Shown one piece after another: positions 3,271-55,842 of a stretch of 64,000 nt of DNA (positions are counted from its first letter, which is position 1; each line of letters begins with the position of its first letter). The notes below the pieces were generated by a model. That model ran no database searches, was not told where the DNA came from, and saw only the letters and a list, made by a program, of their open reading frames with translations. This stretch comes from an uncultured delta proteobacterium (GTDB lineage Bacteria > Desulfobacterota > Desulfomonilia > Desulfomonilales > Desulfomonilaceae): NCBI GenBank assembly GCA_963789265.1, contig CAWBKB010000001.1, positions 1,440,001-1,504,000 of the forward strand, in the 5' to 3' direction. Made by a program: the position numbers and the translations under genes.

Positions 3271-3275
3271 CGACG

Positions 3276-20739: not shown

Positions 20740-21283
20740 AGCCTATCTAAGGCGTATGACGCTCTTTGCCGTGAATACGGGTTGCCGTGATCAAGAAATC
20801 TGCAAGTTGAAATGGGACTGGGAGGTTAACATTCCCGAGCTGCGGACAACTGTATTCATAATTCCTAAAGAGAAGGTCAAGAATCGGGAAGACCGGCCTG
20901 TAGTACTGAACTCCATTGCTGGATCGGTTGTAGAGGAAGTGAGGGGTATCCACGAAGAGTATGTGTTCACTTATAAAGGGAAGCCTCTCCAAAGGATTTA
21001 CAATCGGGCATGGAGACAGGCACGAGAGAGGGCAGGGCTTCCCCAGGTTCGTGTGCATGACCTAAAGCACACCTATGGCCGACGGCTTCGAGCTATGGGG
21101 GTGAGTTTCGAGGACAGACAGGACCTTCTTGGCCACAAGTCGAATAGGGTGACGACTCATTATTCCGCACCTGAGTTGATCAATTTGCTGCAAGCTTCGG
21201 AGAGGGTTTGCAGTCAGGACTGGCACAAATCCGGCACAATGGTCATCCTGAAAAAGAAACCCCGCCTTGCCGTGGTGGGCTAA
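20740..21283 (+). pseudogene. Tyrosine recombinase/integrase, C-terminal catalytic fragment (N-terminus lost)
   Basis: TGCRDQE, VHDLKH, LLGH, TTHY. The upstream part of the listed ORF is antisense to an unrelated secreted-protein fragment. Confidence 0.88.
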
Positions 21284-25000: not shown

Positions 25001-27162
25001 TAGGAGGGAATTGTTATGAGAAATTGAACGGCTTCGATAGTCCTTGTGAACATTGTGCCAATGACAGGCTCATGGAATTACAGGGCCAACCATATCAATG
25101 GGAATACCACAATCCAGTGCTGAAGAGAGATTTCCTTGCAACAGACAGAATGATAAGGTGGCCTGACGGGCGGGATGTGAAATTTCAACTTGCCATAGAT
25201 ATCACCGAGGCCAAGCAAGCTGACCAGGCATTGAGGGAAAGCGAGGAAAAATACCGGGCTGTTTTCGATAATGCTGGGATTGCGATCACTGTGGTTGATC
25301 GGGATAGCAGGAAGCTTACGCAGGCGAATCCTGCATTAGTGAAGATGTTGGGTTATAGCGGTGAAGAACTCCGGCAACTTACCCATCTGGACATAACTCA
25401 TCCTGAAGATAGAGAAATCACTAAACAACACGTAGACAGAGTTATGGAAGGGGCGTTGGATTCGTTCGACCTTGAGAAACGGTACATCAAGAAGGACGGG
25501 AGCATCATTTGGGGGCATCTTTCGGTATCGACCATTCGGGACGCAGAAGGAAATCCAGGGGCTGCGGTGGGCATGATAGCAGACATCGCCGAGCGCAAAA
25601 AGGCTGAAGATGCCGTCCGTAAGAGCGAGGAAATGTTAGAACTTACGTTACAAGCAGCGGATGTTGGCTTATGGGACTGGAATCTTAAGACCGGCTGGGC
25701 TGTCTGGAACGAACGTGCTACTCGGATGCTTGGACATCTACCCGGCGAGGTTCAGCCCAACCTTCGTGCATGGAAAAGCCTTGTCCACCCGGAAGATTGG
25801 CCCCACGTTTCTGAAGTTCTTAACAGCCATCTCGCGGGACGCCTTCCTCTTCTTGAGGTTGAGTATCGGCTGCGATGCAAGTCCGGGGCGTGGAAATGGA
25901 TCTTGGGCCGGGGCAAGGTTGTGGAATATGACGAGCATGGGAAGCCTTCGCGCATGATCGGGACGAATCTGGACATTACCGAACGCAAGTGTGCGGAGCT
26001 AGAAAAAGCAGATCTCAGAGAGCAGCTTATCCAGTCACAAAAGATGGAATCCATCGGCACTCTTGCTGGAGGTATTGCTCACGATTTCAATAACCTTCTT
26101 ACGGTCATCTTGGGTTTCTCGGAACTCATTATATCAGAGAAAGAAAAAGGGGATCAGGAATACGAAGACCTTACGAAGGTAATCCATGCCGCTAGAACTG
26201 CCGGGGATATGGTTCAACAAATCCTTGCCTTCAGTCGCAAGACGGAGACCAAGCTCCGACCAATCAACCTCAACAAGGAAGTTGGGCAACTAAAGAAGAT
26301 GCTCTCCAGGTTGATACCCAAAACCATTGTAGTTGAAATTAGCCTTGATTCCGGTCTTCCAACAGTGAATGCCGATCCCGCACAAATCGAGCAAATTCTG
26401 ATGAATCTGACGGTGAATTCCAGAGACTCAATGCCGAATGGCGGGCGGCTGCTCATCAAAACCCAAACAGTCATGCTGGACGAGAAGTATTGCCGCCTCC
26501 ATCTTGAAGCCTCCCAAGGACGGCATGCTCTTCTCGTTGTCACGGATACGGGTGTCGGCATTGATAGAACCACGATGGACCGTATATTCGAGCCGTTTTA
26601 TACGACCAAGAAACCGGGTCAGGGAACTGGCTTGGGGCTCGCAATGGTTTACGGGATAGTGAAAAGCCACGGTGGGCACATCATCTGTGAGAGTGAACTT
26701 GGAAGCGGGACCACTTTCAAGATATATCTTCCGGCGCACCAAGCTGAAGGAGAAGCAGACGTAACGGTTTCCAGTCAGTTTTCGGCATTAGGTGCAGGAA
26801 CAATCCTTTTGGTGGATGACGAGGAATTTGTACGAGCACTTGGACAAAGGATCTTAGAAAAGGCTGGTTACACTGTTATTACGGCGACAAATGGTCAAGA
26901 AGCTGTTGAGCTTTACAAGGATAAAGGGAACCATATTTCGCTGGTAATCCTTGACCTCATCATGCCGGTGATGGACGGCAATCAATGCATTACGGAAATC
27001 CTAAGGCTTGATCCGAGAGCAAGAGTGTTGATAGCGAGCGGATATTCTCCTGACGGAATCGTAAGAGAAACACTGGAAGGCGGAGCCAAAGGATTTGTTA
27101 GAAAGCCCTATAACGTGAAGCAACTCTTAAAAACTGTCCGGGATGCGTTGAAAGAGAAGTAA
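22081..27162 (+). CDS. Cytoplasmic multi-PAS hybrid sensor histidine kinase/response regulator
   Basis: About ten PAS/PAC repeats ending DITERK, H-box AHDFNN, N/G boxes, C-terminal receiver (VDDE, DLIMP, KP). Confidence 0.95.
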   Translation: MQDRDKTQEQLIDELRAMRQRLSAMEATEARLLGTEKALRESEERFRLLYENAPLGYQSLDENGHFLEVNQAWLDTLGYDREEVIGRWFGDFLAPGYQDHFKINFPKFKAAGEIHWVEFEMLRKDGSQVSVAFDGQIGRDEQGRFRQTHCILHDISEIKRSVEALKASESRYRRLFENAQDGILILDLDTGQILDVNPHLINMLGYSHEEFLDTFLWEVSPFKDTALNKEAFARLRQGACVRYEDLPLETSDGQTIDVEFVSNTYSVDGMTFIQCNIRDITERKRAEEELRQQREELQIILDSVPALIFYKDTNNNMVNANKTWLQTFGYTEHDVIGKCLAEFFPTEQAAELFRDDLEVITTGHPKQNILEVIEIDGRPRAFVTDKIPYQNANGDIIGVIGFSQDITDRKLAEEAIRTSEAQLSNALQMAHLGHWEYDVAKDLFTFNDDFYKIFRTTAEQVGGYTMSSADYARRFVHPDDISVVGNEIRKSIEATDPHFSQQLEHRVLYADGEIGHITVRIFLVKDDLGHTIKTYGVNQDITERKRVEQALQDSEQMLKSLLAASPVGILFTQHSKIKWANDAWVTMFGFENEGEYIDQQTEILYSSQEEYQRVRSILYGNLKPGKVSETDARLMRKDGFAIDVHIRVNFLDPSDPAKGTISALSDVSDRKRSEEELQKSEERLELALQGADLGLWDWYVQQGRAVANQRSAEMIGYSLDEIDQSFGFWESLLHPDDKRRALEKVFNHLSSFTVSYEEEYRVRHKSGAWKWILARGKITERDQDGKPLRMTGTYLDITDRKSSEMRVAEANELREKILAASPVGIEVFKANGQCVLVNDAMGRAIGGTKEQLFAQNFRHMATWEAVGLLDDADQVLSTGVDKQREIHVVSTLGKEVWAETRLTRFNSGGEPHLLLVVNDVSESRKAEAALRFEREQLLSIFGSINEVILVIDPRTYEILYANKFTENLFGTDIIGGNCYEKLNGFDSPCEHCANDRLMELQGQPYQWEYHNPVLKRDFLATDRMIRWPDGRDVKFQLAIDITEAKQADQALRESEEKYRAVFDNAGIAITVVDRDSRKLTQANPALVKMLGYSGEELRQLTHLDITHPEDREITKQHVDRVMEGALDSFDLEKRYIKKDGSIIWGHLSVSTIRDAEGNPGAAVGMIADIAERKKAEDAVRKSEEMLELTLQAADVGLWDWNLKTGWAVWNERATRMLGHLPGEVQPNLRAWKSLVHPEDWPHVSEVLNSHLAGRLPLLEVEYRLRCKSGAWKWILGRGKVVEYDEHGKPSRMIGTNLDITERKCAELEKADLREQLIQSQKMESIGTLAGGIAHDFNNLLTVILGFSELIISEKEKGDQEYEDLTKVIHAARTAGDMVQQILAFSRKTETKLRPINLNKEVGQLKKMLSRLIPKTIVVEISLDSGLPTVNADPAQIEQILMNLTVNSRDSMPNGGRLLIKTQTVMLDEKYCRLHLEASQGRHALLVVTDTGVGIDRTTMDRIFEPFYTTKKPGQGTGLGLAMVYGIVKSHGGHIICESELGSGTTFKIYLPAHQAEGEADVTVSSQFSALGAGTILLVDDEEFVRALGQRILEKAGYTVITATNGQEAVELYKDKGNHISLVILDLIMPVMDGNQCITEILRLDPRARVLIASGYSPDGIVRETLEGGAKGFVRKPYNVKQLLKTVRDALKEK

Positions 27163-27677: not shown

Positions 27678-28376
27678 TTATCTCCCGAATCGAACCCTCA
27701 GCCAAGTGAACCGCTTCTGTGTCTTGTCGTTCTTCACGGCAATAGCCAAAGCTTTTTTACTGCCCACGACGATCGCCAGTCTCTTTCCCCTCGTGATCGC
27801 AGTGTACAAGAGGTTTCTTTGCAGCAGGATGTAGTGCTGGGTCAGGAGAGGAATCACCACGCAAGGGTATTCGGAGCCCTGCGCCTTGTGAACCGAGACA
27901 GCATAAGCCAGGACCAACTCGTCCAGGTCTGAGTAATCATAGACCACGGATCGCCCATCGAACGTGATCGTCAGCTCCTGCATTTCAGTCTCAATCCGAA
28001 TGATTCGCCCAATGTCCCCGTTGAAGACCTCCTTGTCGTAGTTGTTCCTGATCTGCATCACCTTGTCATCGAACCGGAAGTTCCTGCCGCCCCTCGTTAC
28101 CCCGTCCTCTCTCGGATTGAGAGCCTTCTGAAGCTCGACATTGAGGTTGGTTGTTCCAACCAAGCCCCGATTCATCGGAGTCAGGATATGAACCTCGTCA
28201 ATCGGATCGAATCCGAACGCGTTTCTGATTCTACTGCCGACGAAATCCAAAATTATTCGGAGCGCTACTTCCGGCTCCGTCTTCTCGATGAAATAGAAAT
28301 CGTTCCTTCCCTCGGCATTGGGCTGAAGTCGAGGCATCAAGCCGCTGTTGATGCGACGAGCATTCACGATGATGTC
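27678..28376 (-). pseudogene. C-terminal fragment of RecD2-like helicase
   Basis: DKVMQIRNNYDKEVFNGDIG, LAYAVSVHKAQGSEY, RNLLYTAITR; Walker A region absent. Confidence 0.85.
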
Positions 28377-40869: not shown

Positions 40870-41304
40870 CTACAGCCGGCTAGCCTCATTCGCGCTCAAT
40901 GCTACGCGAGCGTGGACCAGTTTTCGGTACTTCTCCGCGACCTTGGCTTGATCACCTTTGGAGAGCGCATTCAGAATGTCACCCTCCAGCTCAGCTACCT
41001 CCAGCCTCGAATAATAGTCAAGAGTTTCTTTGAGATGAGCCAACACGATCTTTCCTGTCAGCAAAGGATGATTGTTGGTAACGTTCGCATCGGGGAATTG
41101 CAGTCCGTGCTCCAACTCGACTTCCAGACCACGACGGAACTCATCGGCAGTTATTTGAGTCGCCTCCGCCCCGACGGCGGTCTGTATGACTTGTGCCTCT
41201 TCAACGGCGACGGCAGCCTCTGTCAGCGACGTCCAGTCCCGAATGCCGAGTTCACGGCACACCCTCTGTACTTCCTCGGTCGTAATGTATTGTGGCAGTT
41301 TCAT
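40870..41304 (-). CDS. DUF5661-like hypothetical protein
   Basis: GLEVELEHG...GKIVLAHLKE..DYY; GGAGG RBS. Confidence 0.7.
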   Translation of the reverse strand: MKLPQYITTEEVQRVCRELGIRDWTSLTEAAVAVEEAQVIQTAVGAEATQITADEFRRGLEVELEHGLQFPDANVTNNHPLLTGKIVLAHLKETLDYYSRLEVAELEGDILNALSKGDQAKVAEKYRKLVHARVALSANEASRL

Positions 41305-41637
41305 CCCATCCTCCCTGGAATCATGCGGCGGTTTTGCCATTACGGGTGTCTTCGGACTGGTGCCGGTTGCAGGCTGGTTTCTCTGGCCCCGAAAAGATCC
41401 CCGCATGTCTCACCACGATACCCGCTGGATGCAAAACCGTCGTCACGTTGCTCAAAATGGCTGTTGTTTCTTGCTGTTGAACGTAACTCACCTCACGTTC
41501 CTCGGTCAAGGACAATATTCGACGTTACTCATAACCCGAAGACGGCATGGCAGTACTGAGCCAAAGGAAAGGCTGTATCTTCTTGGGAATGCTACTTCCT
41601 AACGTGAGCCGACTTATCAGCGCTCCCGTTCTTGCAT

Positions 41638-41803
41638 GTTTTTCTTGGCATGATGCGGACAAATCCACTTTTCGTCTTAGCGGTGGTCACGGCGGCGGGT
41701 CAGCAATATGAGATGATTACAGCTTTAAGTCCCATCCTTAGCGTTGCGAGATGCGGATTTCATTCTTCTCAGTTTCTTCGAGATCGGATCGACAGGGTAT
41801 TCG
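41638..41803. repeat. Diverged non-coding repeat, copy 2
   Basis: Collinear with 36141-36308. Confidence 0.7.
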
Positions 41804-41985
41804 GGCGCAGACGGGAATGGAATGGGTGCGGGCGAACTTGATAGTGCGAGAATCCGCGGTCGGCTCGCTTCAGCTATGTGCCTAGGGGCACCTCCTTGCA
41901 GATAACGAGTACAGAGGGCAAGGGAGGAGATAGCGTCTGCGAACCCTTGCCCGACCGGCCCTCATGCTAATTCACAAACAATCTA

Positions 41986-42306
41986 TTACCAGCGGGATCC
42001 TCCGCCGCCGCGTCCGCCGCCGCCGTCTCGCCTTCCACCGCCGCCGCCCCGAGAGTCGGTCTTGGGTTTAGCCTCGTTCACTGTCAGGCTCCTGCCGCCG
42101 AGATCCTTGGAATCCAGAGCCTGGATCGCCTTGAGACCTTCTTCGCGGTCGGACATTTCGATGAATCCGAATCCCCGAGACTTGTTGGTAAACTTGTCAA
42201 CGATAACCTTGGCGGATACTACTTCCCCGTAGGTTGCGAACAGGCCCTTGAGGTCTGCCTCACTGGTATCGAAGGACAGGTTTCCCACATAGATTTTAAT
42301 ACTCAT
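41986..42306 (-). CDS. RRM RNA-binding protein with Gly-rich tail
   Basis: RNP2 IYVGNL, RNP1 RGFGFIEM. Confidence 0.95.
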   Translation of the reverse strand: MSIKIYVGNLSFDTSEADLKGLFATYGEVVSAKVIVDKFTNKSRGFGFIEMSDREEGLKAIQALDSKDLGGRSLTVNEAKPKTDSRGGGGGRRDGGGGRGGGGSRW

Positions 42307-42517
42307 TCTCTAGCTCCTTTAGAAAAGGCGCGCCACACGCTATGCGAGAGTGCATTTGCAAATACGAACACGGGCTCTTTGTGAACGGGGATCAACCGGA
42401 TGGAATTGCGGTCTGAAATCCTCTACACGGGGCCTATGTCCAGAATCCTAATCCTTGCATGACGCCCGTAGTCACTGCGAGGCCAACTGGAGAAACACAA
42501 GTTAAGGTTCAATACGG

Positions 42518-42546
42518 AGGCTAGGGGCTAAGGCTTTAGTTGTCAA
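42518..42546 (-). promoter_or_regulatory. Sigma-70 promoter for the RRM gene (long ~200-nt leader)
   Basis: TTGACA-17 bp-TAGCCT. Confidence 0.55.
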
Positions 42547-43100
42547 GCGATTGTATTCGTAACCTGCAATTCATTTTTATTCTTGCATTATATCAAAGAC
42601 CCACGCCTGTTCCGTTCGGTAGAGCCCTCCAGTTGTGCAGGGATTGTAAGATCCTGACGTGCCCGTGGTCGCTGAAGGCCCTCCTGGGCTACTGGTCACA
42701 CCCAGGCACACATCGGGGTTAAAGCTCTGAGAACCATTCTCCGCGAGTTTCCACTTTCGGGCATATCGAGTATCCGGAAGTTCCGTCAGCGCGTCTATGG
42801 CGTTCTGGTTGCGCGAGAACGCAGGTCATAGCAAGATCTTCGCCGCATCCTTTCGGTTCCCCATCGGCAGATGGATCTGTTTCGAATCGGTAGCAAGACT
42901 GCAAATAGGCTACGCTACTGGAATATTTATAGGAGGAGCACGTGAAGCTCAAACAGAGCGAATTCTCTCAGAAAGGCACCCTAAGCGCCGCATAAGAAAA
43001 GAGTCAGCAAGCTGGAATACTCGATGTTATGGTTACAGCGACTTCAGATCCTAAAAGTGAGACCGATCCCAGCGTGATCCTTTTAGTTATGCTGCCGCCA

Positions 43101-43517
43101 CTACCCATCATCCACCTTTCCTCTCAGTGCTTTTACTCGTCCTCGTTTGGCTTTGCTTTCCAAACGCTTTTCCTGGGACCCTTGCGTTGGCTTCGTCTCG
43201 TGCCGTCGTTTACGGGAAACCATTACGCGCCTGATGAGATCTCGGAGCCTATCAAGTGCATCTTCTCTATTCTTCAGTTGGGTGCGATACCGTTGCGCCT
43301 TGATGATGACGACGCCTTCTTCCGAAATACGATGATCCTTTACCGTCAATAGCCTTTCTTTGTAAACATCGGGTAATGATGAAGCCTTGATATCAAACCG
43401 CAGATGAACGGCGGTAGAAACCTTGTTCACATTCTGGCCACCAGATCCTTGAGCACGTACAGCGTGAACGTCAATCTCTTCGCTTGGGATCGTTATTTCG
43501 TTTGGAATTTCCAGCAT
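43101..43517 (-). CDS. arfB: Alternative ribosome-rescue peptidyl-tRNA hydrolase
   Basis: GSGGQNVNKV motif and basic C-terminal tail. Confidence 0.93.
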   Translation of the reverse strand: MLEIPNEITIPSEEIDVHAVRAQGSGGQNVNKVSTAVHLRFDIKASSLPDVYKERLLTVKDHRISEEGVVIIKAQRYRTQLKNREDALDRLRDLIRRVMVSRKRRHETKPTQGSQEKRLESKAKRGRVKALRGKVDDG

Positions 43518-43563
43518 GAATCAAGCGACTTTGTGAGACAAGACAGCCTTAGTAAAATGCCAC

Positions 43564-44010
43564 TCATGATCCGAGGAGACATTTCTCTGAACTGTTGTGT
43601 CCGTCGTAATATCTCGCCTCTATGAGGTTGCCTTCTGGGTCCCGAAAATAGATTGACATCCCTTCACCATGAGCGCCCCATCGCTGAACAGGTCCCTCTG
43701 TTATCGGAACGGCGTTAGCCTTAAGTCTTTCCAGTAGGTTCTGCCAAGTCTCCTTACTCAACGCAATACAGAAGTGGTTCAAGTTTTCTCGGCCTTCCCC
43801 CGCCCGAGCGCTTTTCTCCCACATCGTTTTCGGGAACAGGTCGATGATTGTGTCCGCATTCAGGCGTACCGACGGGAAGGGTACCTTCCCGGCTCGATAT
43901 TCTTCCAGGCGCTCAGTCGGAAACTTAAGTACTGTCGAATAGAAAGCGATCATCTTCTCATCATCTTTCATGTTCAAAACAATGTGGTCCATAACGCATT
44001 GCATATTCAA
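43564..44010 (-). CDS. VOC/glyoxalase family protein
   Basis: DHIVL, NHFC, SIYFRDPEGNLIE. Confidence 0.88.
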   Translation of the reverse strand: MNMQCVMDHIVLNMKDDEKMIAFYSTVLKFPTERLEEYRAGKVPFPSVRLNADTIIDLFPKTMWEKSARAGEGRENLNHFCIALSKETWQNLLERLKANAVPITEGPVQRWGAHGEGMSIYFRDPEGNLIEARYYDGHNSSEKCLLGS

Positions 44011-44076
44011 TCCCTCCCAAAAAAGTCACGAGGACTCCGAGATCTCAGGACTGAGACCTACCATGCCCCATTTCCG

Positions 44077-45736
44077 TCACTCAAATTCCACTTCCAAGGG
44101 CACCAAGGGAAACTCCACGGCATTTGTCATGATCTCTTCCATCAGAGTACGAGTCCGCTCAACTTCTTCTTTTGGTGCCTCAACCCAAACGGCATCGTGT
44201 ATGATCATGACAATACGGCATTTCATCTTCCGCCTTTGAAATATAGCTTGGAGGCTTACGAAGGCCAACGTCAGGACATCAGCTTCAGCCTGTTGCAGTA
44301 CCTGTGGCTTTCACCCGTCGTTGCTCGGACACGCCGAATTCCTGGTCAAATCGTCGTCTTCGCCCTACATAGGATTCGACATAACGGTCCTGGGGCTCTT
44401 TCTTCTTCAGATCAGCCATAATCCCATCCAAATACCTCTTAGCCACCGAATATTTAGACCAGAAGGCGTTAATATAACCTTGGGCCTTACGGGTACCCGT
44501 GTTCAGCTTCTGCCCGAGGCCCCAAGCGGTCATTTGGAAGAGTATGCCGAAATTCACCTCTTTGGCCAGGTCTCTTTTCACTTTGTCTGTTGCGCCCTGA
44601 ATACCGCACATCTCCGCGGTCAACCAATGTACGTCTTTACCTTCACGGAAAGCCTTTACCAGTTCAGGGTCTCTGGAAAAGTTCGCCAACAGGCGGAGCT
44701 GGATTTGTTTGTAGTCCGCCTTCAAAAAGACACAGCCCGGAGCGGGAATTAAGAGCGGCCTGCAGATCTCCTTGTTAACGTTTTGCACTGGCGGATCTGA
44801 TGCATAGACGCGACCCGTGCGAGACATGACCTTCCATTCAGGGTGCACCCGAGTGGCACCCGCTGCTTCCTCAAGAAATCGCAAATCTATAGACCTGTCC
44901 TGCCATTCCAATATCTGGGCTGCTATAGGATGTTTTGGGGCTAAGCGCTTCAAGTCTGCTCGTGTTACCACTTCCTTGTTACCGCCACGCCATATTTTCC
45001 GACCCCGGAGCAAATCATAAACATCCCGTTCGGACCATAGATTCATCTCTCTTCCGCCAGTGATCTCATCGGCCAATGCTTTACTTTTGTTGAGAGCATC
45101 CCGGTATGCCACTGCGGCGGCAGCGTGATCTACCCCGATCCCGTAACGGCTCATCTGCAAAAGCATTAGGGCGAGGGCCAACTGGATATAAAAATAATTG
45201 AATTTAAGATCCGGGTCGGCTTCGTGGATTAGTTCGAGCAGTTCATAAGCCAAATCGTATATCAGGTGTGCATCGTAAGCCAGCATACCGCGGATTGATT
45301 CAGGGTAGGGATTATCAGCAAGGACTTTGTGCCATAGCGGATAGTCTTCGGACAAGTATTCGTGTACCAAATGGCTCACAGAGTAATCTTTTTTATATCC
45401 CTCTGAATTCAGCAAGTAAGCCATTAGCTCCGTATCAAGGATAAGATCTGTACGAGTGTGCTCATCTCCGAGGCGCAAATCTCGCCATATACGGCTGATG
45501 CCGTGCACTGCTAACCGGCACCTTTGCGGCTCATACAAGAATTTCTTGATAAGCTGAAATTCTTCAAGACTGACATCTACACACGCATGTTGGACTGATA
45601 GGCCGTACAAGCCGATTATTACTCTATCGTGAAATATGAAAGGAGCTGTAACAGCCACAGGAGTTTCAAGCTGGACAAAATCATTGCTCTGGTTGAGATC
45701 TTCAAGGCTATGAAAGACTTTTAGCTGTATACCCAT
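44077..45736 (-). CDS. Divergent short family-A DNA polymerase (~552 aa after correcting a +1 frameshift at ~44301)
   Basis: TGRVYASDPPVQN, motif A ADYKQIQLR, motif B RDLAKEVNFGILF, LQQAEAD, motif C IIHDA; no 5'-nuclease domain. Confidence 0.88.
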
Positions 45737-45883
45737 GAATACTCAACTTCTGTAATACTATAATACCGTAGAGCTACTAGTACTATTATTAATAAGGAGA
45801 GGGGGCAAGGTGCAGGGGGGATATAACATTATAAGGGTGGTACCGATTTCTACAATAAGCTGATATCATTAGTTAAAGACCTG
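45737..45883. other. AT-rich/G-run spacer, possible replication origin
   Basis: TAATACTATAATAC..CTACTAGTACTATTATTAATAAGG followed by G runs, between the HTH gene and the polymerase. Confidence 0.35.
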
Positions 45884-46960
45884 TCACGTATATACTTGGA
45901 ACTTGGGCGAGGACCGCACCACCCAAATGCCGTCTCGTATGGCAAGCAAGCCCACTCCCTGAAGGTGCTTTCGATGAATTCCTATCTGCTTCGGAGTGAC
46001 TTGTAACTCACGGGCAATGGCCACATCGGTCAGATGGAGCTTCCATTCATTGCGGCGGGCAGCCTCTTCCTGCTTGACCAGCAGCCATAGATAGAGGCGC
46101 ACGGCTGCACTGTTGATTCGGCTCAGGATTCGGTCGTCAACGATCTGCGGCCAGAAATAAGCGAATTCGTCGGAAAAAGTGCGAGTGTGCTTCAGTTCAA
46201 CCCTTTCAGAGCCACTTATCAGTTCTTCCGCTTCCTTTATAAGCTGGGGCACGTGCTGACGGCGCATGTTGCTGTAACGCTGAATGAGATCGAGAAGCTT
46301 GGCCTTAGGAACTTCGTAACGGACTATTTTAGGCTTTTTCTCCACACCGTGTGCCTCGAATTTGCCGACCTTACCGAACTCTTCGGCCACGATGGTCATG
46401 GCGGAAGCTACTGAGCGGAATCCATGAAAGATCTGAATTAGGCTGTATATGTCCACAGGGCTGATGCGGTTGGGATTACGGCCGTTCAGCTTGCATCTCG
46501 TACGCTGGCACTCCGTGGAGTGGCAATCAAAGCCGACCTCCCCCTGTGAAGTAATGGCCATCTCAAGGGCTTCCGCATACCAAGTGTCAGGATCGCCTAC
46601 ACCCTGGATTTTGTATTTCTTCCTTATTTCTGCGGATAAGCGCAAAGGCTTTTGAAACTTCGGGACCAGGCAATCAAAAATCAGGGTGGGGCCGGAGAGA
46701 GTTCCATGCTCGGCATACCGTGTTCTTAAGAAGTCTCGGGTCAGTTCAAAAAAGCGCCAGTGTTTGATCGTCTGCGGGTCCCATGTTCCCTTTGCGCCAG
46801 GTTCCACAAAAGAGAGGTCCCCAATCTTTGGCGCGGGCTGCTCATCGGGTACAAAAACGTTATAGGTCTTCCCATACTCGTGCCATTGCTTGAGCAAGGC
46901 GTCTCTTTGATCGTTAGATTCTTTGGGATCTTCCTTTGAGTTCATTCCGGTGCTCGACAC
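45884..46960 (-). CDS. Hypothetical protein with Cys cluster and C-terminal winged HTH (Rep-like?)
   Basis: CHSTECQRTRC; AVRLYLWL...LTDVAIARELQVTPKQIGIHRKHLQGVGLL. Confidence 0.65.
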   Translation of the reverse strand: MSSTGMNSKEDPKESNDQRDALLKQWHEYGKTYNVFVPDEQPAPKIGDLSFVEPGAKGTWDPQTIKHWRFFELTRDFLRTRYAEHGTLSGPTLIFDCLVPKFQKPLRLSAEIRKKYKIQGVGDPDTWYAEALEMAITSQGEVGFDCHSTECQRTRCKLNGRNPNRISPVDIYSLIQIFHGFRSVASAMTIVAEEFGKVGKFEAHGVEKKPKIVRYEVPKAKLLDLIQRYSNMRRQHVPQLIKEAEELISGSERVELKHTRTFSDEFAYFWPQIVDDRILSRINSAAVRLYLWLLVKQEEAARRNEWKLHLTDVAIARELQVTPKQIGIHRKHLQGVGLLAIRDGIWVVRSSPKFQVYT

Positions 46961-47225
46961 TTGAATAGTTGTCGCTCACTTTAGTACAAGCAAGGCATGC
47001 GGAGGAACCTTGTTTCCTGTGGGCGTAATTGGCCGCGAGATTCGTCCTATAAGGGGTCTAGAATGGATTCTGAGAGAAGTTAAAGATTGGGGTATGTCTT
47101 AGAGCATGGTCGTTTTTCGAACATTTGGAAGAGATACGGTTTGCGCGAGCTTTGGGAGCAGGTTTTCTGAATAGGCCACAGAACCTCGGATACCGGGCTT
47201 AGCTCACGTTCTACCGTGAAATGTC

Positions 47226-47573
47226 CTAGCAGTGCAGAGGCCGTACTGTCGAGCCTGAAAACGTGCCAAAACTTGTCTTTGGCACAGAGTAAGCTGGCCC
47301 GCCCCAATTGGCATCTCCGTTGGACTCATGCTTGCTCACGGAATTCACGAGCTTTTCTCTAACCGCCATAAGTAAGCCCTCTCCGGCGAGCAACCCTCGC
47401 GGGCTCTTCTCTGAGGTGAGCTGTTTGAAGTTCTGGGTGTAATAATTGGAAGGACCTAATAGGGTGAGAAGGGCACCGAACGCCAGTATTTGCCAGTTGA
47501 GGAAGGCTCGAAGATCAAACCCATTGTGCAGCATAGCCTCGGCAGCACTGATGAGCTTGTCGAGGGATTCCAT
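47226..47573 (-). CDS. Hypothetical protein
   Basis: AAGGAGG RBS before ATG. Confidence 0.55.
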   Translation of the reverse strand: MESLDKLISAAEAMLHNGFDLRAFLNWQILAFGALLTLLGPSNYYTQNFKQLTSEKSPRGLLAGEGLLMAVREKLVNSVSKHESNGDANWGGPAYSVPKTSFGTFSGSTVRPLHC

Positions 47574-48401
47574 TTCTCCGCCTCCTTTTCACAACTGTCA
47601 TGAAGTGACCGCGGTGCGGATAGAATGTTCCCTAGGGTCTAGGAAAATTATAAGGGTCTTACGGAGGAATGTGTGAAAAGTGACAAGTGTCTCCAGGGAG
47701 GCTTGCAGACCCTTCTCTTTAGTCTTACTGTCTTGCCGCCCAACAACGGCTTCTTGCGGCGGTTCTTGGAAGAGACGCAGAATATGCTCAAGGCAAGAGC
47801 AATGAGAATGAGTGGCCTCCTGAGAAGGATCAATGAATCAGGACAGGAAACCGAGGCTCTGCTCAGAATAGCTGCCGGCAGGATGGAAGCTGCCCAAGCA
47901 AAGCCTTGAGAAAGACCCGGTAGGATTCAACTCCGCAGGTCTTCTAAATGTTTTCATGCCCCCACGTCTCCCCAACCGATGAACTGTCCACCTCTGCAAG
48001 ACGGCTCTCATTACTAATTTTGAGTTATTCGCTCGGCAAAAGTTGAAAACTAAACAGAAGGACCTGCCAAAACGTAAGGCCATCGGCGAAAGTTTGCTTG
48101 ATCTCCCCTTCCAACTGGCACTTCCAGTTTTCCGGCCATGTCCGGCCCTCATTTATTGAGCTTGATCATTCCTCAGTCTCCGATGCCGGACTTTCATTGC
48201 CCCGAACCAATCCGAAGAGGTCCGTCTAAATAACGATAATGCTAGTTTTTGATCAGTAATTGAAAAAAGGGAGGCATTTTCAAATCAATTGACTATAATA
48301 ATAATTGTTCTTAAAGCGGCGGCGATTAATTATCACATGAGATGTGCCTTCCCGCAAAGATCATTCTCATCTGAGCATGAAGGTGGCGCCGGAGGCGACT
48401 A

Positions 48402-48749
48402 ATGACAATCGAAAAGGACGGCCGCAATGTGAATGCAAGGCAAGCCGTGACATTGATCCGCAGCTCGATGACTAACGTGGAACTGCTGCACAGGTTGAAG
48501 ATCAGCCCCAAAGGATTCAGCGATCTGTTGAGCCAGCTTTTCCAAAAGAAACTGATAGGAGAAGAAGATTTGAAACGCAGAGGCTTACGCTTCAAAATCC
48601 TGAAGAAAGAGCAAATCGCTGCCGTACCAATTAAGCCTTCACCGGCTTCGTGGGAAGACGACGAGTATGAATTTCCCGACACGGTTGTTTTGACCGACCT
48701 GCTCACCCCCCTGCATACCGATTCCCTGCCGCCAAAACTACGCCGCTGA
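48402..48749 (+). CDS. Hypothetical protein with a Desulfomonile-type helical repeat domain
   Basis: VNARQAVTLIRSSM...LKISPKGF..LL.QL...LI resembles a domain I recall as expanded in Desulfomonile; GGAGG RBS. Confidence 0.55.
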   Translation: MTIEKDGRNVNARQAVTLIRSSMTNVELLHRLKISPKGFSDLLSQLFQKKLIGEEDLKRRGLRFKILKKEQIAAVPIKPSPASWEDDEYEFPDTVVLTDLLTPLHTDSLPPKLRR

Positions 48750-49364
48750 TCGAGTACTTTCACGTACCTCGACTAATATTGCGAGTTCCTTTATCAGTGA
48801 ATCATATTCTACCTGGACTTTATCGGTGTAGCTCGAAGCAGATCTAATCACCCACATGCAACTCTATGAAAGGACGTCTCTTTCCGATAGTCAGATAACC
48901 AGAGCATTTGTCGAGTCGGAGAAAGCCATAGCGGAGCTGGATTAGATCACTTTCACGTTCCGGATGACGGGGAGCGTACTCAATTTAACTCTCCCGACGT
49001 CGGGAAAGTTCCGTCGGACGGGGTTTTCAGACGGGGCGAATTGAAAAAAATTAAGCCCTTCATTTTCAACAAGCGCCCCTTAATGGAGGATGAATCGTTT
49101 GTCTCTGGTCGTGCATCAAATACTCCAAGAGCCGAACGTTCGGAGGTGTGTACGATTAGGGGAGGTAAGTTCTCAATACCGTTCGTTTCTAATACATATG
49201 ATTCAGAAGATTTGAAGTTGAATGCTGCTTTGGCCTTAGGTTAAGGAGAATTCGATACTGCCCTGAATCATGGTAAAGATAAGAAATTTGTATAAAGACG
49301 CTGGAAGGACCAATGAGAACCAATGTAAGACGACAATCCTCTTCGATCATACTTCTCGGAGGAC

Positions 49365-50072
49365 ATGGAAATGAAAAACTTAAGCAAAGTAGGTATTGGC
49401 ACAATCCCCCTTCTATTACTTCTATTTGTGATTTCAGGAGTTGCTAGAAGTGAAGAGGTGCCTGCGATTCCAGCAGGTGCTAAGGCTTTCGTAGCCAAGG
49501 TTTCGGCAAATAGGAACTGTCTATTAGTACGTAGCCAGGCTGGCGAGTCTTCAAGAGTGGTCGGCTGTCTTCCGCGATGTAAGAAAGTAACACTGACAGG
49601 TAATTCAAACGATATATGGGTACAGATGTCTGCCCCCATATCTGGCTGGGTCAATGGGTTGTTCTTAGATCCTAATCCAAGAATATGTAATTTAGGGTCA
49701 TATGCCGGGGTAGCTCCATATGATGGCCCAGATCCCAGCCTGTATCCAGAGGACTATTTTGACTGGTGGAGTTCTCCTAGATGGGCTTGGTACTGGCCTT
49801 GGTGGTGGCATTACAGACACAATCGATACCATTTCTTCGCCCATCATCATCCTCGGAAACATCACGGTCACTACAAATATGTCCATGTTGGGCACCATCC
49901 GGCTCACCATGCTGTACGCCATCTTGAAAAACCTCACCAGGGGGGAAAACACGGTGGTAACAAATTCGCTAGACCTCACCATGGTGCCAAGAGATCCGCT
50001 GTGCATCACCATCGTGGTGGATTCCATAGAGCCGCTGGCCATGGTGGAAGACATGGTGAAAGACACCGATGA
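49365..50072 (+). CDS. Secreted SH3b-like protein with Trp-rich segment and His-rich tail
   Basis: Signal peptide; LLVRS...VG.L...V.L....WVQ....GWV; His-rich C-terminus. Confidence 0.7.
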   Translation: MEMKNLSKVGIGTIPLLLLLFVISGVARSEEVPAIPAGAKAFVAKVSANRNCLLVRSQAGESSRVVGCLPRCKKVTLTGNSNDIWVQMSAPISGWVNGLFLDPNPRICNLGSYAGVAPYDGPDPSLYPEDYFDWWSSPRWAWYWPWWWHYRHNRYHFFAHHHPRKHHGHYKYVHVGHHPAHHAVRHLEKPHQGGKHGGNKFARPHHGAKRSAVHHHRGGFHRAAGHGGRHGERHR

Positions 50073-53498: not shown

Positions 53499-54446
53499 AT
53501 GAATCTAGCAGAACTTACAAAGATGACGGAAGCACAAGCTAGAGAATTTCTTGAGGAAGTTCGCTGGCACGGAAATCCTACTTGTCCTCACTGCGGGGGG
53601 ACTGACGCGTATCAACTCCGTGGAAGCGCAACGCGCCCCGGTGTTTGGAAGTGTTCGGCTTGTCGTAAGCAGTTTACTGTGACTGTGGGGACGGTCATGC
53701 ATCGCTCTCATCTCCCTCTTCGTACGTGGGTTATCGCTTTCCATCTTATGTCTTCCTCTAAGAAGGGAATTTCTGCCCTACAACTTCAAAGAGTCTTGGG
53801 AATTGTTAACTATAAGAATGCTTGGCATCTAGCTCATAGAATAAGGCTTGCAATGACAGAGGGCTTAGGAGTCTTCCCCTTGAAGGGAACCGTTGAAGTA
53901 GATGAGACTTATGTTGGGGGCAAGCCGAGAAAAGAGAGCAAGGGCAGCTCAGAGAAGCCAAAGAAAAAGTCTAAGCGTGGTCGTGGGACTGATAAGACTC
54001 CTGTGCTAGCTTTGGTAGAGAGAAACGGTAACGTAGTCTCTAAGCCCATAGAAAGAGTTAATGCTTCTACCCTCAAAGGTGCTATCAAGGAAATGGTTCA
54101 CAAAGATTCTTGTATCATGACCGACGAATGGTCTTCTTACACTGGTATTGGTGAGCATTTCAATGGTGGTCATGAAGTAGTGAAACACAATGACGGTGAG
54201 TTTGTCAGAGGAAATGCGAGCACCAATACGGTAGAATCTTACTTCGCACTGTTGAAGAGAGGCGTCCACGGAGCATTCCATCACGTGTCTAAGACACACT
54301 TACACAGATACTGCGATGAATTTTCTTTCAGGTGGAATCATAGAAAGATTGACGACGGTGAGAGGACAGTTTGCATTATTCAGGGTATAGGTGGAAAGAG
54401 GCTTGTATATGCTGATTGCAGGGGATTAATACATGAGCACAACTAA
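53499..54446 (+). CDS. IS1595-family transposase
   Basis: Zn ribbon CPHC..CSAC, SSKKGISALQL, VEVDETYVGG, IMTDE, NTVE, RYCDEFSFRWN. Confidence 0.93.
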   Translation: MNLAELTKMTEAQAREFLEEVRWHGNPTCPHCGGTDAYQLRGSATRPGVWKCSACRKQFTVTVGTVMHRSHLPLRTWVIAFHLMSSSKKGISALQLQRVLGIVNYKNAWHLAHRIRLAMTEGLGVFPLKGTVEVDETYVGGKPRKESKGSSEKPKKKSKRGRGTDKTPVLALVERNGNVVSKPIERVNASTLKGAIKEMVHKDSCIMTDEWSSYTGIGEHFNGGHEVVKHNDGEFVRGNASTNTVESYFALLKRGVHGAFHHVSKTHLHRYCDEFSFRWNHRKIDDGERTVCIIQGIGGKRLVYADCRGLIHEHN

Positions 54447-55842
54447 TGCTGAGCTTGAGGAATGGATGAGAGTACCCCGCGAGGGTGTTCTAGAGTTCAA
54501 GGCGGCAAGGAACCAGTATGACCGCGAAAAGGTGTATGGTTATAGTGTGGCAATTGCGAATGAAGGTGGGGGCAAACTCATTCTTGGTGTGAGTGATTCA
54601 CTTCCTCGTCAGGTGGTTGGAAGTAATGCGTTTCGCAACATAGGTAAGATTACTCAACAGCTTTTTACAAAGCTTCCCTTTCAGGTAGATGTGGAAGAAT
54701 TGCCACATCCAGACGGACGTGTAGTGATATTTCACATACCTGCCCGACCTATAGGTACTCCTTATGAGCTTGACGGAAAATTTCTAATGCGCGTGGGTGA
54801 ATCTCTAGTTCCGATGTCTTCGGACCGTCTCCGACAAATATTGGATGAGGGTAAACCTGACTGGTTTTCTGAGGAGGCTAAGAACGAATGTTCATCAGAT
54901 GATGTAATACAATTGTTAGATGTTCAGAGCTATTTTGACTTAACGAAAACATCGCTTCCAACAACGCGCGATGCTATTCTGGACCGATTTGAACAGGAGA
55001 GTTTGATTCTACGAAAGGGAGAATTCTGGGCAATAACCAACTTGGGGGCTATCCTCTTTGCTAAGAATTTAGAGCACTTCGTTTCTACTTCTCGTAAAGC
55101 TCCGAGAGTGATTGTGTATCCTGGAGTTGATAAGACGGATACCGCTCGTATTGATGAATTCAAGAAAAAAGGATACGCCGCTGGTTTTGAGTCTCTCATA
55201 GACTTTATCAATGGACAGATTCCAACAAATCCAACTATTCTCAAAATCTTGCGCGACGAAAAGAAAATGTTTCCTGAGATTGCTATACGCGAGGTTATAG
55301 CAAACGCCCTTATTCATCAAGATCTTACAGAAACAGGCATGTTTGTAATGGTGGAACTTTACTCAGACCGACTGGAAATCTCAAATCCTGGGGCACCGGC
55401 TATCCCGCCCGAACGATTTATTGATGGGTACAAAGCACGTAATGAGCGGTTAGCGGACCTAATGCGGCGTATGGGCATTTGCGAAGAAAGAGGTAGTGGA
55501 ATAGACAAAGTCATTCGTTGGGTGGAAGTATATCAACTGCCTGCTCCTGTTTTCCGAGACGGTCAGCAGGATACCCAAGTAATTCTGTTCTCGCACAAAG
55601 AGTTTGAGGATATGGACCGCTCTGACCGCATTCGAGCCTGCTACCAACACTGCTGCCTGCGCTATGTCATGACAAAAGGTATGACTAATCAGAGTTTGCG
55701 TAAAAGATTTGATCTAGATAAGAATCAGACACATGCAGTCTCTCGAATTATTGCGGCAACAGTCCAAGAAGGACGAATCAAATTGGCTGATACGGGGACG
55801 ACCTCAACCCGATACACTAAATATATTCCATCATGGGCTTGA
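54433..55842 (+). CDS. AlbA_2/Schlafen-like domain + HATPase_c_4 protein
   Basis: LEFK...AIANEGGG.LILGV.D; REVIANALIH, SNPG, RN..LA..M...G..E.RGSG. Confidence 0.85.
   Translation: MSTTNAELEEWMRVPREGVLEFKAARNQYDREKVYGYSVAIANEGGGKLILGVSDSLPRQVVGSNAFRNIGKITQQLFTKLPFQVDVEELPHPDGRVVIFHIPARPIGTPYELDGKFLMRVGESLVPMSSDRLRQILDEGKPDWFSEEAKNECSSDDVIQLLDVQSYFDLTKTSLPTTRDAILDRFEQESLILRKGEFWAITNLGAILFAKNLEHFVSTSRKAPRVIVYPGVDKTDTARIDEFKKKGYAAGFESLIDFINGQIPTNPTILKILRDEKKMFPEIAIREVIANALIHQDLTETGMFVMVELYSDRLEISNPGAPAIPPERFIDGYKARNERLADLMRRMGICEERGSGIDKVIRWVEVYQLPAPVFRDGQQDTQVILFSHKEFEDMDRSDRIRACYQHCCLRYVMTKGMTNQSLRKRFDLDKNQTHAVSRIIAATVQEGRIKLADTGTTSTRYTKYIPSWA

Follow-up and report, generated by a model that had tools for sequence, protein, structure and literature searches.

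What kind of enzyme results when a DNA polymerase I relative changes its sugar steric gate and is encoded beside a putative DNA-binding protein? The question is raised by a two-gene cassette on the minus strand of the 64,000-nt stretch of Desulfomonilaceae DNA analysed here (the window). The host of the cassette is a soil bacterium. A sequence-only reading of the locus proposed a mobile-element module in which the altered polymerase may use rNTPs, in primase-like or mixed synthesis, together with an upstream Cys/HTH protein acting at an AT-rich, ori-like spacer. Several of the features that it described are found, and others need revision. The general appearance of the cassette is that of a machine for targeted DNA synthesis or priming, of a kind not described before.

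The polymerase gene is located at 44077–45736 (minus strand) and encodes 552 amino acids after one extra base is discounted. It is recognized by Pfam DNA_pol_A and by alignment to Bst Pol I, the best match among solved structures (E 3.5e-36), and is ∼30% identical to bacterial DNA polymerase I. Residues were numbered by alignment to E. coli Pol I from NC_000913.3. The three unusual motifs described earlier are all present in the minus-strand translation. Motif A reads D341-Y-K-Q-I-Q346-L-R, with Q346 (CAG at 44699–44701) at the position of E710. Motif B reads N395-F-G-I-L-F400-Q401, where F400 (codon 44537–44539) corresponds to Y766 and Q401 to G767, and motif C is H513-D514-A515 (44191–44199), with A515 at the position of E883. 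Both catalytic aspartates (D341 = D705, D514 = D882) and the motif B Arg and Lys (R388 = R754, K392 = K758) are retained, as had been stated, and E484 is a new glutamate at the A852 position. The 5′ nuclease is indeed absent, Pfam giving DNA_pol_A only. The 3′–5′ exonuclease domain, approximately residues 1–180, is full-length and dead by its residues: D355, E357 and D424 are replaced by T, P and I, and the D501 equivalent (D155) alone remains. By profile and catalytic residues the polymerase is classed in family A, and it departs in conserved traits, not in fold or homology. A canonical 900-aa Pol I with its canonical residues intact is also encoded in the same genome.

As given in the window, the gene is split. 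Its span of 1660 nt is 3n + 1, and it appears as two open reading frames one frame apart, ORF1 at 44285–45736 (483 aa) and ORF2 at 44077–44268 (63 aa), the latter carrying motif C; these score 151.2 and 36.4 bits with Pfam PF00476 (DNA_pol_A; cut-off 34.3). The split is due to a one-base excess at a GG (44301–44302, minus strand). Protein P0001, of 552 aa, is 100% identical to ORF1 and continuous across 44301/44302. A 522-nt contig from run X1 spans 44000–44446 and has one base missing at 44301, being otherwise identical, and a contig from run X6 ends at the same site and agrees with X1. Because these contigs from two public runs do not have the extra base, an intact 552-aa gene exists; both runs stem from a single study and may be the very data from which the window derives, and contig coverage has a gap at 44470–45240 that includes the Gln codon at 44699–44701. 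Thus, the protein of ∼552 aa described earlier stands for the form in other contigs, but not for the frame-broken gene of the window.

In family-A polymerases, E710 and Y766 are textbook cases of invariance. Both have been called universally conserved in the A family (PMC3715850). In a set of 47 sequences reaching down to 27% identity, the steric-gate position is Gln in every one, and the E883 position is A in 34, G in five, S in five and C in three. Since Gln is found at E710 in 47/47 and Glu never at E883, the substitutions are conserved family traits and not the decay or sequence error that a check of homologues might have revealed. The position of Y766 is less uniform (F in 42, Y in four, one gap), and the earlier statement that Glu and Tyr are both changed therefore holds family-wide for Glu but not for Tyr. 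Compared with bacterial Pol I enzymes such as Klenow, Bst and Taq, the polymerase shares the fold family, the catalytic Asp pair, the O-helix Arg and Lys, H881, R668 and Q849; D705, D882, H881, R754, K758, R668 and Q677 are kept in all 47 sequences. It differs in having no 5′ nuclease and a dead exonuclease site, in E710Q and the loss of E883, in a Glu at A852 (47/47), in Q or M at G850, and in a thumb helix that has lost 5–6 residues, E. coli 682–686 being deleted throughout. N845 is Ala in 34 of the 47. Neither the catalytic nor the new residues vary across clades of 27–40% identity. An invariant Glu852 together with the thumb deletion points to an active site that has been redesigned and not merely made sloppy. 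In effect, the retention of Gln710 across deep divergence, with the loss of E883, the gain of Glu852 and the thumb deletion, is a natural experiment in rebuilding the Pol I active site.

No family with these traits is described in the literature searched, where a minor Gln-gate cluster could still be present among the 19 clusters of PMC10201439, as far as its available text goes. Phe at Y766 is shared with the DpoZ phage polymerases and is called unique to two DpoZ clusters of the 19, but a steric-gate change is not reported for DpoZ in the available text of that source (PMC10201439). The best phage matches to the polymerase are 27–29% identical and are not labelled DpoZ, and the window's Pfam scan shows no PurZ context.

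Does the altered gate admit ribonucleotides? Published data on Klenow enzymes carrying the same substitution do not favour rNTP use by a Gln-gate polymerase. Gln and Glu have the same shape. Klenow E710Q, a slow enzyme with a mutator phenotype, shows no improvement over the wild type in closing on rUTP; its Kd2 for correct dTTP is 230 μM versus 0.83 μM for the wild type, with slow incorporation, and Klenow Y766F behaves as the wild type does (PMC3715850). In addition, the staphylococcal polymerase CCPol keeps E710 and primes with dNTPs, and Gln is therefore not needed for priming (PMC7581432).

The gene upstream of the polymerase, here termed the partner gene, is confirmed as a 358-aa open reading frame from a GTG at 46960 (45884–46960, minus strand); the start is likely the ATG at 46943–46945, giving 353 aa. 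Alignment, AlphaFold models, fold searches and complex prediction outline an N-terminal segment (∼12–47), a four-Cys domain (∼52–201) and a winged helix (∼218–354). The alignment shows C97, C146, C151 and C156 to be invariant or nearly so, and these are putative zinc ligands. The C-terminal part is a winged helix by predicted fold (NtcA, Z 7.0; the RepA_N-type initiator 4pta, Z 6.7). Foldseek against the PDB returns weak winged-helix rows only for the whole partner, none at E ≤ 0.001, and nothing meaningful for its N-terminal domain, and the partner and five neighbouring open reading frames have no match in PHROGs or PADLOC. The 5′ flank of the gene (46961–47184, minus strand), delimited by copy comparison as a promoter-like region and 5′ UTR, shows 83–85% identity to the flanks of three further copies; the proteins of those copies have diverged far more.

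Models of the four-Cys domain weakly resemble the zinc ribbon of DnaG primase. DnaG zinc-binding domains are the sole matches at Z ≥ 4 to the globular part of the domain model (2au3_A, Z 5.2, rmsd 3.5, 92 residues aligned; 1d0q_B, Z 4.3, 86/102 residues), the likeness to zinc ribbons being weak (Z ≤ 5.6); Foldseek gives no match for this domain. Atlas leads include clusters carrying PF01807, with scores of 0.88 and 0.78. At the profile level, hhalign pairs partner residues 170–199 with positions 64–93 of the DnaG zinc-binding domain over 30 columns, with a probability of 24.7%; PF01807 is absent among the best 25 of 44 families matching 48 partner members at E ≤ 5, and a six-frame PF01807 scan of this genome finds DnaG alone. 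The partner has the same order of elements as zinc-binding domains of the DnaG/T7 type, i.e. Cys knuckle, strands, Cys knuckle and a helical D-x-F...A-x-x-x-A segment, but differs in having no HMM-level match, in C4 rather than CHC2 ligands and in an insertion of ∼45 residues between the knuckles. It further differs from DnaG in that there is no TOPRIM in the partner, and catalysis would be by the separately encoded family-A polymerase.

The two proteins are predicted to form a complex. Three predictions of polymerase plus partner give ipSAE values of 0.86, 0.86 and 0.87, compared with 0.01 for the best control. The ipSAE mark is reached by 116/157 solved complexes and 2/215 mismatched pairs, a calibration that is only approximate here because our own alignments served as input. 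The runs have at least 48% of contacts in common, with a partner pLDDT of 76. The predicted interface involves polymerase residues 30–35, 78–86, 103, 115–148 and 155, in the exonuclease domain, and partner residues 21–46, 68–75 and 90–92; W26, Y29, G30, F36, V37, P38, Q41, P42 and P44 are near-invariant interface residues of the partner. In these models the N-terminal segment of the partner docks on the dead exonuclease domain of the polymerase, which may have been reused as a protein docking platform.

The intergenic spacer (45737–45883, minus strand) is 147 bp long and AT-rich (39% G+C), as had been noted, and is ∼170–360 bp at other loci. It consists of a conserved box, then a C-rich tract and then a variable AT-rich leader. 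Its proposed ori-like character is not supported: no iterons are found in or around the spacer, the conserved part is a promoter-like box and the AT-rich leader varies in both length and sequence. The box (45825–45846, minus strand), defined by spacer comparison, has a GGTACC palindrome beside TATAAT and is present in 8/8 close-clade spacers; a TACC...TA-rich variant is found in nine further spacers, chromosomal and plasmid. The box probably serves as promoter plus operator, and the winged helix of the partner is a candidate to bind it. Since it lacks a good –35, the box is not called by a simple sigma-70 scan; the sigma-70 and terminator scan of 42600–47700 gives three promoter-like sites versus 4.3 expected, none of them in the spacer. 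An Rfam scan of 41000–50000 (E ≤ 1) and a tRNA scan of the window reveal no match.

Whether the polymerase and its upstream gene co-occur was assessed from both directions, and they prove to be a fixed pair in most loci. At 19 loci reached via a near-full-length partner, the polymerase is found 170–360 bp downstream on the same strand in 14, as remnants in two and not at all in three. Via the polymerase, 20 loci show a partner directly upstream, full or split, in 12 and a remnant in two. No conserved third gene (helicase, recombinase or other replication gene) is seen across 20 + 9 loci. Among the data searched the pair is found in Desulfomonilaceae only. The partner occurs in 4/401 genomes sampled across the phylum, all of one family, and in 175 representative clusters among 1.84 billion proteins; 14/25 genomes of the same family are without a strong match to the module. 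Some genomes carry several divergent, decaying copies, up to about ten. Many copies in relatives are degraded to fragments or have internal stop codons, and this genome has a broken second copy; at least 16 copies in relatives are full-length and open. In a sister genome the same site, beside glyoxalase and arfB, is occupied by another version of the entire pair that is 30% identical. Plasmid pDESTI.01 of Desulfomonile tiedjei DSM 6799 carries the pair as well (genes 23910–24956 and 25204–26913); on this plasmid there are also a separate ParA gene and a candidate Rep of the HTH_36 type, so that replication of the plasmid does not have to depend on the module. The mobile-element character proposed earlier is supported in that the pair occurs patchily, in several copies that have often decayed, and also on a plasmid. 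No transposase or integrase accompanies it.

The closest analogy is with CCPol-MP of staphylococcal SCC elements, in which a family-A polymerase with a truncated last thumb helix acts as a primase and its exonuclease remnant is bound by a small partner protein (PMC7581432; PMC10201439); related Pol-SSB pairs are reported from mobile elements of Bacillota (PMC10061031). In both systems a family-A polymerase gene lies beside a separate gene for a DNA-binding protein and both are linked to mobile DNA. In both the partner is placed on the exonuclease-domain region, here by prediction only (ipSAE 0.86 vs 0.01), and the last thumb helix is shortened (E. coli 684–692 in CCPol; 682–686 here, in 47/47). 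There are also differences. The partner here, at ∼350 aa, combines a Cys4 domain with a winged helix and is not a small OB-fold SSB; the exonuclease domain is full-length but dead, rather than truncated; and a helicase and a site-specific recombinase are linked there, but none here across 20 + 9 loci. E710 is kept in CCPol and is always Gln here, the hosts are Bacillota there and Desulfomonilaceae here, and the gene order here is partner first.

The best explanation, held tentatively and by analogy with CCPol-MP, is that the pair forms a primase-polymerase of two subunits that is targeted to a site and belongs to a module of selfish or plasmid-derived nature. The two genes would encode a heterodimeric, specialised DNA-synthesis enzyme. 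Its catalytic subunit would be a polymerase of Pol I type in which the metal-binding Asp residues and the primer/template and triphosphate contacts are retained, and which works without proofreading. The pocket for the sugar and nascent base pair would be remodelled by Gln at 710, in most cases Phe at 766, the absence of Glu at 883 and a new Glu at 852, with a shorter last thumb helix. The exonuclease domain would hold the conserved N-terminal segment of the partner, and the partner would supply two further domains, a zinc ribbon of primase-like type and a winged helix that binds DNA. The partner may thereby keep the enzyme at a specific DNA site, where strands would be started or extended; we infer this targeting and priming role from the analogy with CCPol-MP and with the zinc ribbons of DnaG and T7 primases. 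The primase-like idea gains indirectly from the weak DnaG zinc-ribbon likeness and the CCPol-like shortened thumb helix.

The pair may instead be a conflict module (toxin-antitoxin, abortive infection or other defence), a reading that we consider unlikely but of real weight. The effector would be the polymerase, either harmful or directed at phage, and the HTH partner would be a repressor and/or stoichiometric inhibitor that binds both the promoter box and the enzyme. A repressor-plus-effector pair fits the HTH-first gene order and the conserved GGTACC palindrome overlapping a TATAAT box before the polymerase gene equally well. The patchy, multi-copy and often decayed distribution also fits, as do flanks better conserved than coding sequences, and the 30%-identical pair at the same site in the sister genome can be read as cassette replacement. 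The plasmid copy lies among AbiE and BREX-like genes, and a type ISP restriction gene adjoins the module at locus L044. A spacer of 147–360 bp, however, is unlike that of tightly coupled toxin-antitoxin genes, and the predicted interface is on the exonuclease domain and not in the polymerase cleft. Defence systems are usually widespread, whereas this partner was found in only 4/401 genomes and 175 clusters, and has no PADLOC match. The UG9 reverse-transcriptase defence candidates (PADLOC RTasPolA; PMC9226505) likewise have a family-A polymerase among a few accessory genes that are not part of core replication, and the RTasPolA model matches the polymerase at 2.4e-26; but at 91 bits it scores below the generic Pfam DNA_pol_A (151 bits), the partner is unrelated, and no reverse-transcriptase domain is present among the window's open reading frames or the neighbours of nine other loci.

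An auxiliary low-fidelity repair or mutagenic polymerase, without exonuclease and recruited by the partner to DNA sites or lesions, is a more doubtful proposal. Klenow E710Q being a slow mutator (PMC3715850) is in its favour, together with Ala at N845 in 34/47, the lost exonuclease residues and the canonical Pol I that the genome retains; APEX and CHEAP, whose role would be comparable, are cellular family-A groups with an auxiliary function, found alongside Pol I in bacteria (PMC10201439). But up to about ten divergent, decaying copies per genome, or a location on a small plasmid, are rare for repair genes, the module is missing from most genomes of the family, and Glu852 and the thumb deletion point to a redesigned active site. 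The zinc-ribbon and winged-helix partner also speaks against it. We know of no repair adaptor of such a kind. That the pair is a non-functional relic, a decaying paralogue pair whose odd residues arose under relaxed constraint, seems very improbable. The frameshift of the window copy as given, the broken second copy and the fragments and internal-stop copies of relatives are what a relic would show, but the X1 and X6 contigs have the intact frame, at least 16 relatives' copies are full-length and open, the catalytic and new residues are invariant across distant clades and the interface residues of the partner are near-invariant. For the family as a whole the relic reading is largely refuted.

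A bolder version of the primase-polymerase reading, which we rate as improbable, is that the cassette is a minimal self-replicating or self-mobilising element. The partner would recognise the element's own noncoding DNA, either the promoter-box region or the conserved flanks, and would let the polymerase start synthesis de novo at that place and copy the ∼3.5-kb cassette. The invariant Gln710, Glu852 and shortened thumb would then be adaptations that hold the initiating nucleotide. If true, multi-copy spread would be explained without a transposase or integrase, and the element would match, with a family-A enzyme, the self-synthesising elements known with polymerases of family B. If, more simply, the pair primes, a primase would have arisen from Pol I a second time and independently, here by borrowing a DnaG-like zinc ribbon in trans, and the pair would provide a compact, site-targeted DNA-synthesis tool. 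The question is open to direct testing, as D. tiedjei DSM 6799, which is in culture and non-pathogenic, has the pair.

A repeat of ∼280 nt (42727–43001, no strand assigned) is found in many loci directly 3′ of the polymerase gene and may belong to the module. It is not convincing as a structured RNA: RNAalifold with 17 copies, on one strand, gives –11.6 kcal/mol, of which the covariation term is –0.41, and three compensatory pairs. Nor does it appear to be the leader of an RRM gene, as such a gene adjoins it in only 3/30 loci. At the present locus the repeat is parted from the polymerase gene by a glyoxalase gene (43564–44010) and an RF-1/ArfB-like gene (43101–43517).

The polymerase gene lies on the minus strand at 44077-45736 and, in the window sequence, consists of two open reading frames offset by one frame. 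The first (44285-45736, 483 aa) matches positions 12-280 of the Pfam DNA_pol_A profile with 151 bits, and the second (44077-44268, 63 aa) matches positions 311-373 with 36 bits. The break falls at the GG at 44302-44301. P0001, a 552-aa protein in a public collection, is 100% identical to the first frame and runs on through the break. A 522-nt contig from the sequencing run X1 matches 44000-44446, the sole difference being one base missing at 44301, and a contig from run X6 ends at the break at 44301 in a pattern compatible with the shorter form; both runs are from one study and could share the window's source. Because P0001 and these contigs give an unbroken frame, the gene is taken, on sequence grounds, to be whole in some very close genomes at least, and the extra base at 44301/44302 to be either a mistake of assembly or a lesion that arose very recently. 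The length of ~552 aa given in the sequence-only reading thus holds for P0001 but not for the window copy, which is split into 483 and 63 aa.

The motif readings made earlier are exact: Q346 (CAG, 44699-44701), F400 (44537-44539) and H513-D514-A515 (44191-44199). Residues were numbered by alignment of 47 family members, ranging in identity from 89% down to 27%, with the genome's own canonical Pol I and with E. coli Pol I (NC_000913.3), whose numbers are used below. D705, D882, H881, R754, K758, R668 and Q677 are kept in all 47 sequences, and Q849, R841 and R690 in 46. At position 710, Q replaces E throughout (47/47), and at 883 Glu is found in none (A in 34, G in 5, S in 5, C in 3); these homologues bear out the view that the substitutions are neither decay nor error. 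Ala852 is Glu in 47/47, and a deletion of five to six residues at positions 682-686 is likewise present in every sequence. Other changes are Tyr766 to F in 42 (Y is retained in 4), Gly767 to Q in 33, Asn845 to A in 34 and Gly850 to Q (41) or M (5). In the exonuclease domain D355 is replaced by T or S, E357 by P, and D424 by I in 42/47 and by T, V, M or L in the remainder; of the catalytic set, the D501 equivalent alone is retained. The genome's own 900-aa Pol I has canonical residues at every such position. Since the changes hold across 47 sequences of 89% to 27% identity, they are fixed traits of a constrained family.

Upstream of the polymerase, and separated from it by a 147-bp spacer (within 44077-46960, minus strand), is the partner ORF of 358 aa (45884-46960, minus strand). 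That this gene co-occurs with the polymerase was confirmed from both directions. A survey starting from the polymerase gave matches in 41 related genomes, and among 20 loci fetched, a partner homologue is directly upstream in the same orientation, full or split in 12 and as a remnant in 2. A contig scan starting from the partner gave 34 loci, 19 with a near-full-length partner; the polymerase starts 170-360 bp downstream in 14 of these 19, is present only as a remnant in two (L056, L061), and is not adjacent in three (L042, L048, L067). By gene order, then, the upstream gene belongs to the polymerase. The remaining neighbours vary by locus and include ankyrin proteins, transposases, a type ISP restriction gene, Nramp and sensor kinases; no conserved third gene is found across the loci whose neighbours were compared.

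Pfam detects no family above cut-off in the window's partner copy, and among 48 partner members there are weak matches to HTH_Crp_2 (35) and HTH_36 (20). C146, C151, C156, D123, D170, K66, W68, W127 and Y128 are invariant in the partner alignment and C97 is near-invariant; an N-terminal stretch is also strongly conserved (W26, Y29, G30, F36, V37, P38, Q41, P42, P44). In the AlphaFold model (mean pLDDT 80), residues 218-354 form a winged helix whose best fold matches are NtcA/CRP-type proteins (Z 7.0), the RepA_N-type plasmid initiator 4pta (Z 6.7) and the DnaD N-terminal domain (Z 5.4). A separate model of residues 1-215 (pLDDT 80.5, pTM 0.70) has DnaG zinc-binding domains as its top fold matches and the sole ones with Z >=4, both low: 2au3_A (Z 5.2, rmsd 3.5, 92 residues) and 1d0q_B (Z 4.3, 86/102 residues). 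Other matches mostly cover the N-terminal helix only, and weaker ones reaching the globular part are Twinkle (7t8b_A, Z 3.3) and Mediator (6xp5_Q, Z 3.2). A language-model look-up returned a cluster in which 15% of members carry PF01807 (score 0.88), and also one of DnaG primases (score 0.78). When the partner was compared, profile to profile, with the DnaG zinc ribbons of 11 related genomes, its residues 170-199 fell opposite ribbon positions 64-93, with a probability of only 24.7%; Foldseek gave no match for this N-terminal domain, and the PF01807 HMM did not detect the partner among the matches listed for the 48 members or in the genome scan. A remote, putative DnaG-type zinc ribbon is likely but unproven.

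Prediction of a polymerase-partner complex, with both family alignments supplied, gave ipSAE values of 0.86, 0.86 and 0.87, and three controls gave 0.00-0.01. In a benchmark, 116 of the 157 solved complexes reach that mark, as do 2 of the 215 mismatched pairs; these counts are only roughly valid here because our own alignments went in. The runs have at least 48% of contacts in common, with a partner pLDDT of 76. No similar complex is known to us, so the high score is unlikely to reflect a solved structure already learned by the predictor. The predicted interface involves partner residues 21-46, which are in the conserved N-terminal stretch, 68-75 and 90-92, and polymerase residues 30-35, 78-86, 103, 115-148 and 155. 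The polymerase side is the dead exonuclease domain, former Exo I-III motif positions included. The modelling supports binding of the partner to the polymerase.

The partner profile finds 175 representative clusters (E <=0.001) among 1.84 billion proteins, many of them fragments. The partner is present in 4 of 401 genomes sampled across the phylum, all 4 in the window's own family, and in 0 of 393 sampled from other families; strong polymerase matches occur in 11 of 25 genomes within the family. Record titles and protein names of the loci carry Desulfomonilaceae and related labels. The polymerase is found at ~12 places in the related genome G005 and 10 in G001. Single genomes hold clades only 27-40% identical to one another, and in multi-copy genomes many copies are truncated or have internal stops. 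The window's genome has a second, broken module (G000:C5:398245-401701), with the polymerase in three frames and a stop codon in the partner, and three partner fragments, at places including C5:390224-390712 and C1:1139302-1139886. G005 and G001, the genomes richest in modules, also contain several 800-900-aa ORFs with a Zn_ribbon_DnaG match (e.g. G001:C40:99053-99322), one of them ~2.6 kb from a polymerase fragment; these are probably mobile-element primases. The best phage matches of the polymerase are generic (27-29% identity).

The 26.9-kb circular plasmid pDESTI.01 of Desulfomonile tiedjei DSM 6799 carries a polymerase copy, 38.5% identical (25204-26913), and its partner (23910-24956). 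Homology to the chromosomal copies covers the two genes and spacer only, 23961 to 26913. Other plasmid genes encode ParA, an HTH_36 protein that may be the plasmid's Rep, rnhA, AbiE, BREX-like ATPases and a tyrosine recombinase. The rnhA product, RNase HI (4670-5113), and a PD-(D/E)XK nuclease (3079-3840) are encoded on this plasmid (NC_018026.1), and ~1.5 kb without annotated gene follows the polymerase stop codon; these could bear on primer processing or the plasmid origin.

The spacer had been described as ori-like, a description that found no support: no iterons were found in or around it, and its conserved box reads as a promoter with operator. In close-clade spacers (8/8) a GGTACC palindrome lies beside TATAAT, followed by a C-rich tract and an AT-rich leader of variable length and sequence; in more distant clades and on the plasmid the box takes a TACC...TA-rich form, and the C-rich tract again comes next. 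The box looks, from its sequence, like a promoter-operator rather than a recognisable origin, and makes a natural candidate for binding by the partner's winged helix. The polymerase leader is a fast-changing stretch: L040 has a long (TA)n run there (spacer about 8023-8293), and L046 an apparent tandem duplication of the polymerase gene start (spacer about 8023-8382). The 224 bp upstream of the partner (46961-47184) and its first ~40 codons (to 46836) are 83-85% identical to three copies (G000:C5, L048, L064) whose proteins are only ~41-46% identical. A CCCTTAT box resembling a promoter and a short GGAAC...GTTCC hairpin lie in this flank, which is a cis element or else a tract of recombination.

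Immediately 3' of the polymerase gene come glyoxalase-family and RF-1-domain (ArfB-like) genes (43101-44010). At the equivalent site of a sister genome (L026, 7091-8040), these are 82% and 96% identical, respectively, and the polymerase and partner are 30% and 25% identical. A divergent pair beside conserved neighbours indicates exchange of whole cassettes at this fixed site, with the flanks conserved. Beyond these genes is a discrete ~280-nt repeat with sharp borders (42727-43001). At 10 or 11 of 30 loci around its matches, the 3' end of a polymerase, whether gene or remnant, is <=1.2 kb away and the relative orientation never changes; at four of these loci the repeat is within ~30 bp of the gene end. 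It also occurs alone. Its matches number 26 in G005, 9 in G001 and 5 in the related genome G006; the window's genome has only two full copies, both at polymerase modules. On the strand tested the repeat showed no convincing RNA structure, and Rfam has no match.

At the sequence level, these comparisons establish that the family-A polymerase is under constraint, keeps its catalytic equipment and lacks proofreading, and that its gene follows that of a Cys4/winged-helix protein. The partner N-terminus is predicted to plug into the dead exonuclease domain, and in the likeliest scheme the partner would tether the polymerase to a DNA site and help it hold the template and begin synthesis, as do the zinc ribbon of DnaG/T7 primase or the MP of CCPol. 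Glutamine has the shape of glutamate. In Klenow, E710Q has an overall affinity for the correct dNTP ~280-fold below wild type (Kd2 230 uM vs 0.83 uM), is slow to incorporate it and acts as a mutator, and Y766F is about equal to wild type (PMC3715850). On rUTP the closure constant K2 is 0.056 for E710Q, 0.083 for wild type and 0.16 for E710A; E710Q is thus no better than wild type and E710A is better (PMC3715850). Given these data, the substitutions alone would lead one to expect either low fidelity or changes elsewhere that compensate, of which the invariant Glu852 may be one, and do not predict ribonucleotide use. The 682-686 deletion falls in a helix described by Bebel et al. as shortened in CCPol and single-subunit RNA polymerases, which they suggest leaves space for the triphosphate of the first nucleotide (PMC7581432).

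An auxiliary error-prone repair polymerase would fit the Klenow data, but is at odds with the copy number, decay and plasmid location. The operator-like box and the population pattern agree with a conflict module of repressor or inhibitor plus effector; such a module matches poorly the confinement to one bacterial family and an interface lying away from the active site. Pure decay of the family is excluded by the conservation. Partner-assisted synthesis from a DNA site is the preferred, though tentative, scheme, and its closest functional precedent is the CCPol-MP and Pol-SSB pairs of Bacillota. As described, those partners are OB-fold proteins (PMC7581432; PMC10061031; PMC10201439), the exonuclease domain is truncated, helicases are linked and E710 is intact (PMC7581432), whereas here the partner is Cys4/winged-helix, the exonuclease domain is dead, no third gene is conserved and Q is found in 47/47. 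The text of the 2023 reclassification of family-A polymerases into 19 clusters reports none with a changed steric gate, and calls Phe at the Y766 position unique to DpoZ (PMC10201439). No literature description of this polymerase-partner family was found; by homology, the polymerase is filed as an apparently undescribed family-A subfamily with a new kind of partner.

Upstream of the module is a 115-aa ORF (47226-47573) of no known family, which is not conserved beside other modules. A box before it (47644-47665) resembles the polymerase-spacer box (direct repeat D4, 82% identical). Elsewhere in the window (20648-21283, 27678-28367, 53499-55842) are a phage-integrase fragment, a truncated RecD-like helicase C-terminus, an IS1595 transposase and a Schlafen/AlbA_2-HATPase_c_4 gene. 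From ~20 to 57 kb the sequence has the look of an island region that is variable and in decay.
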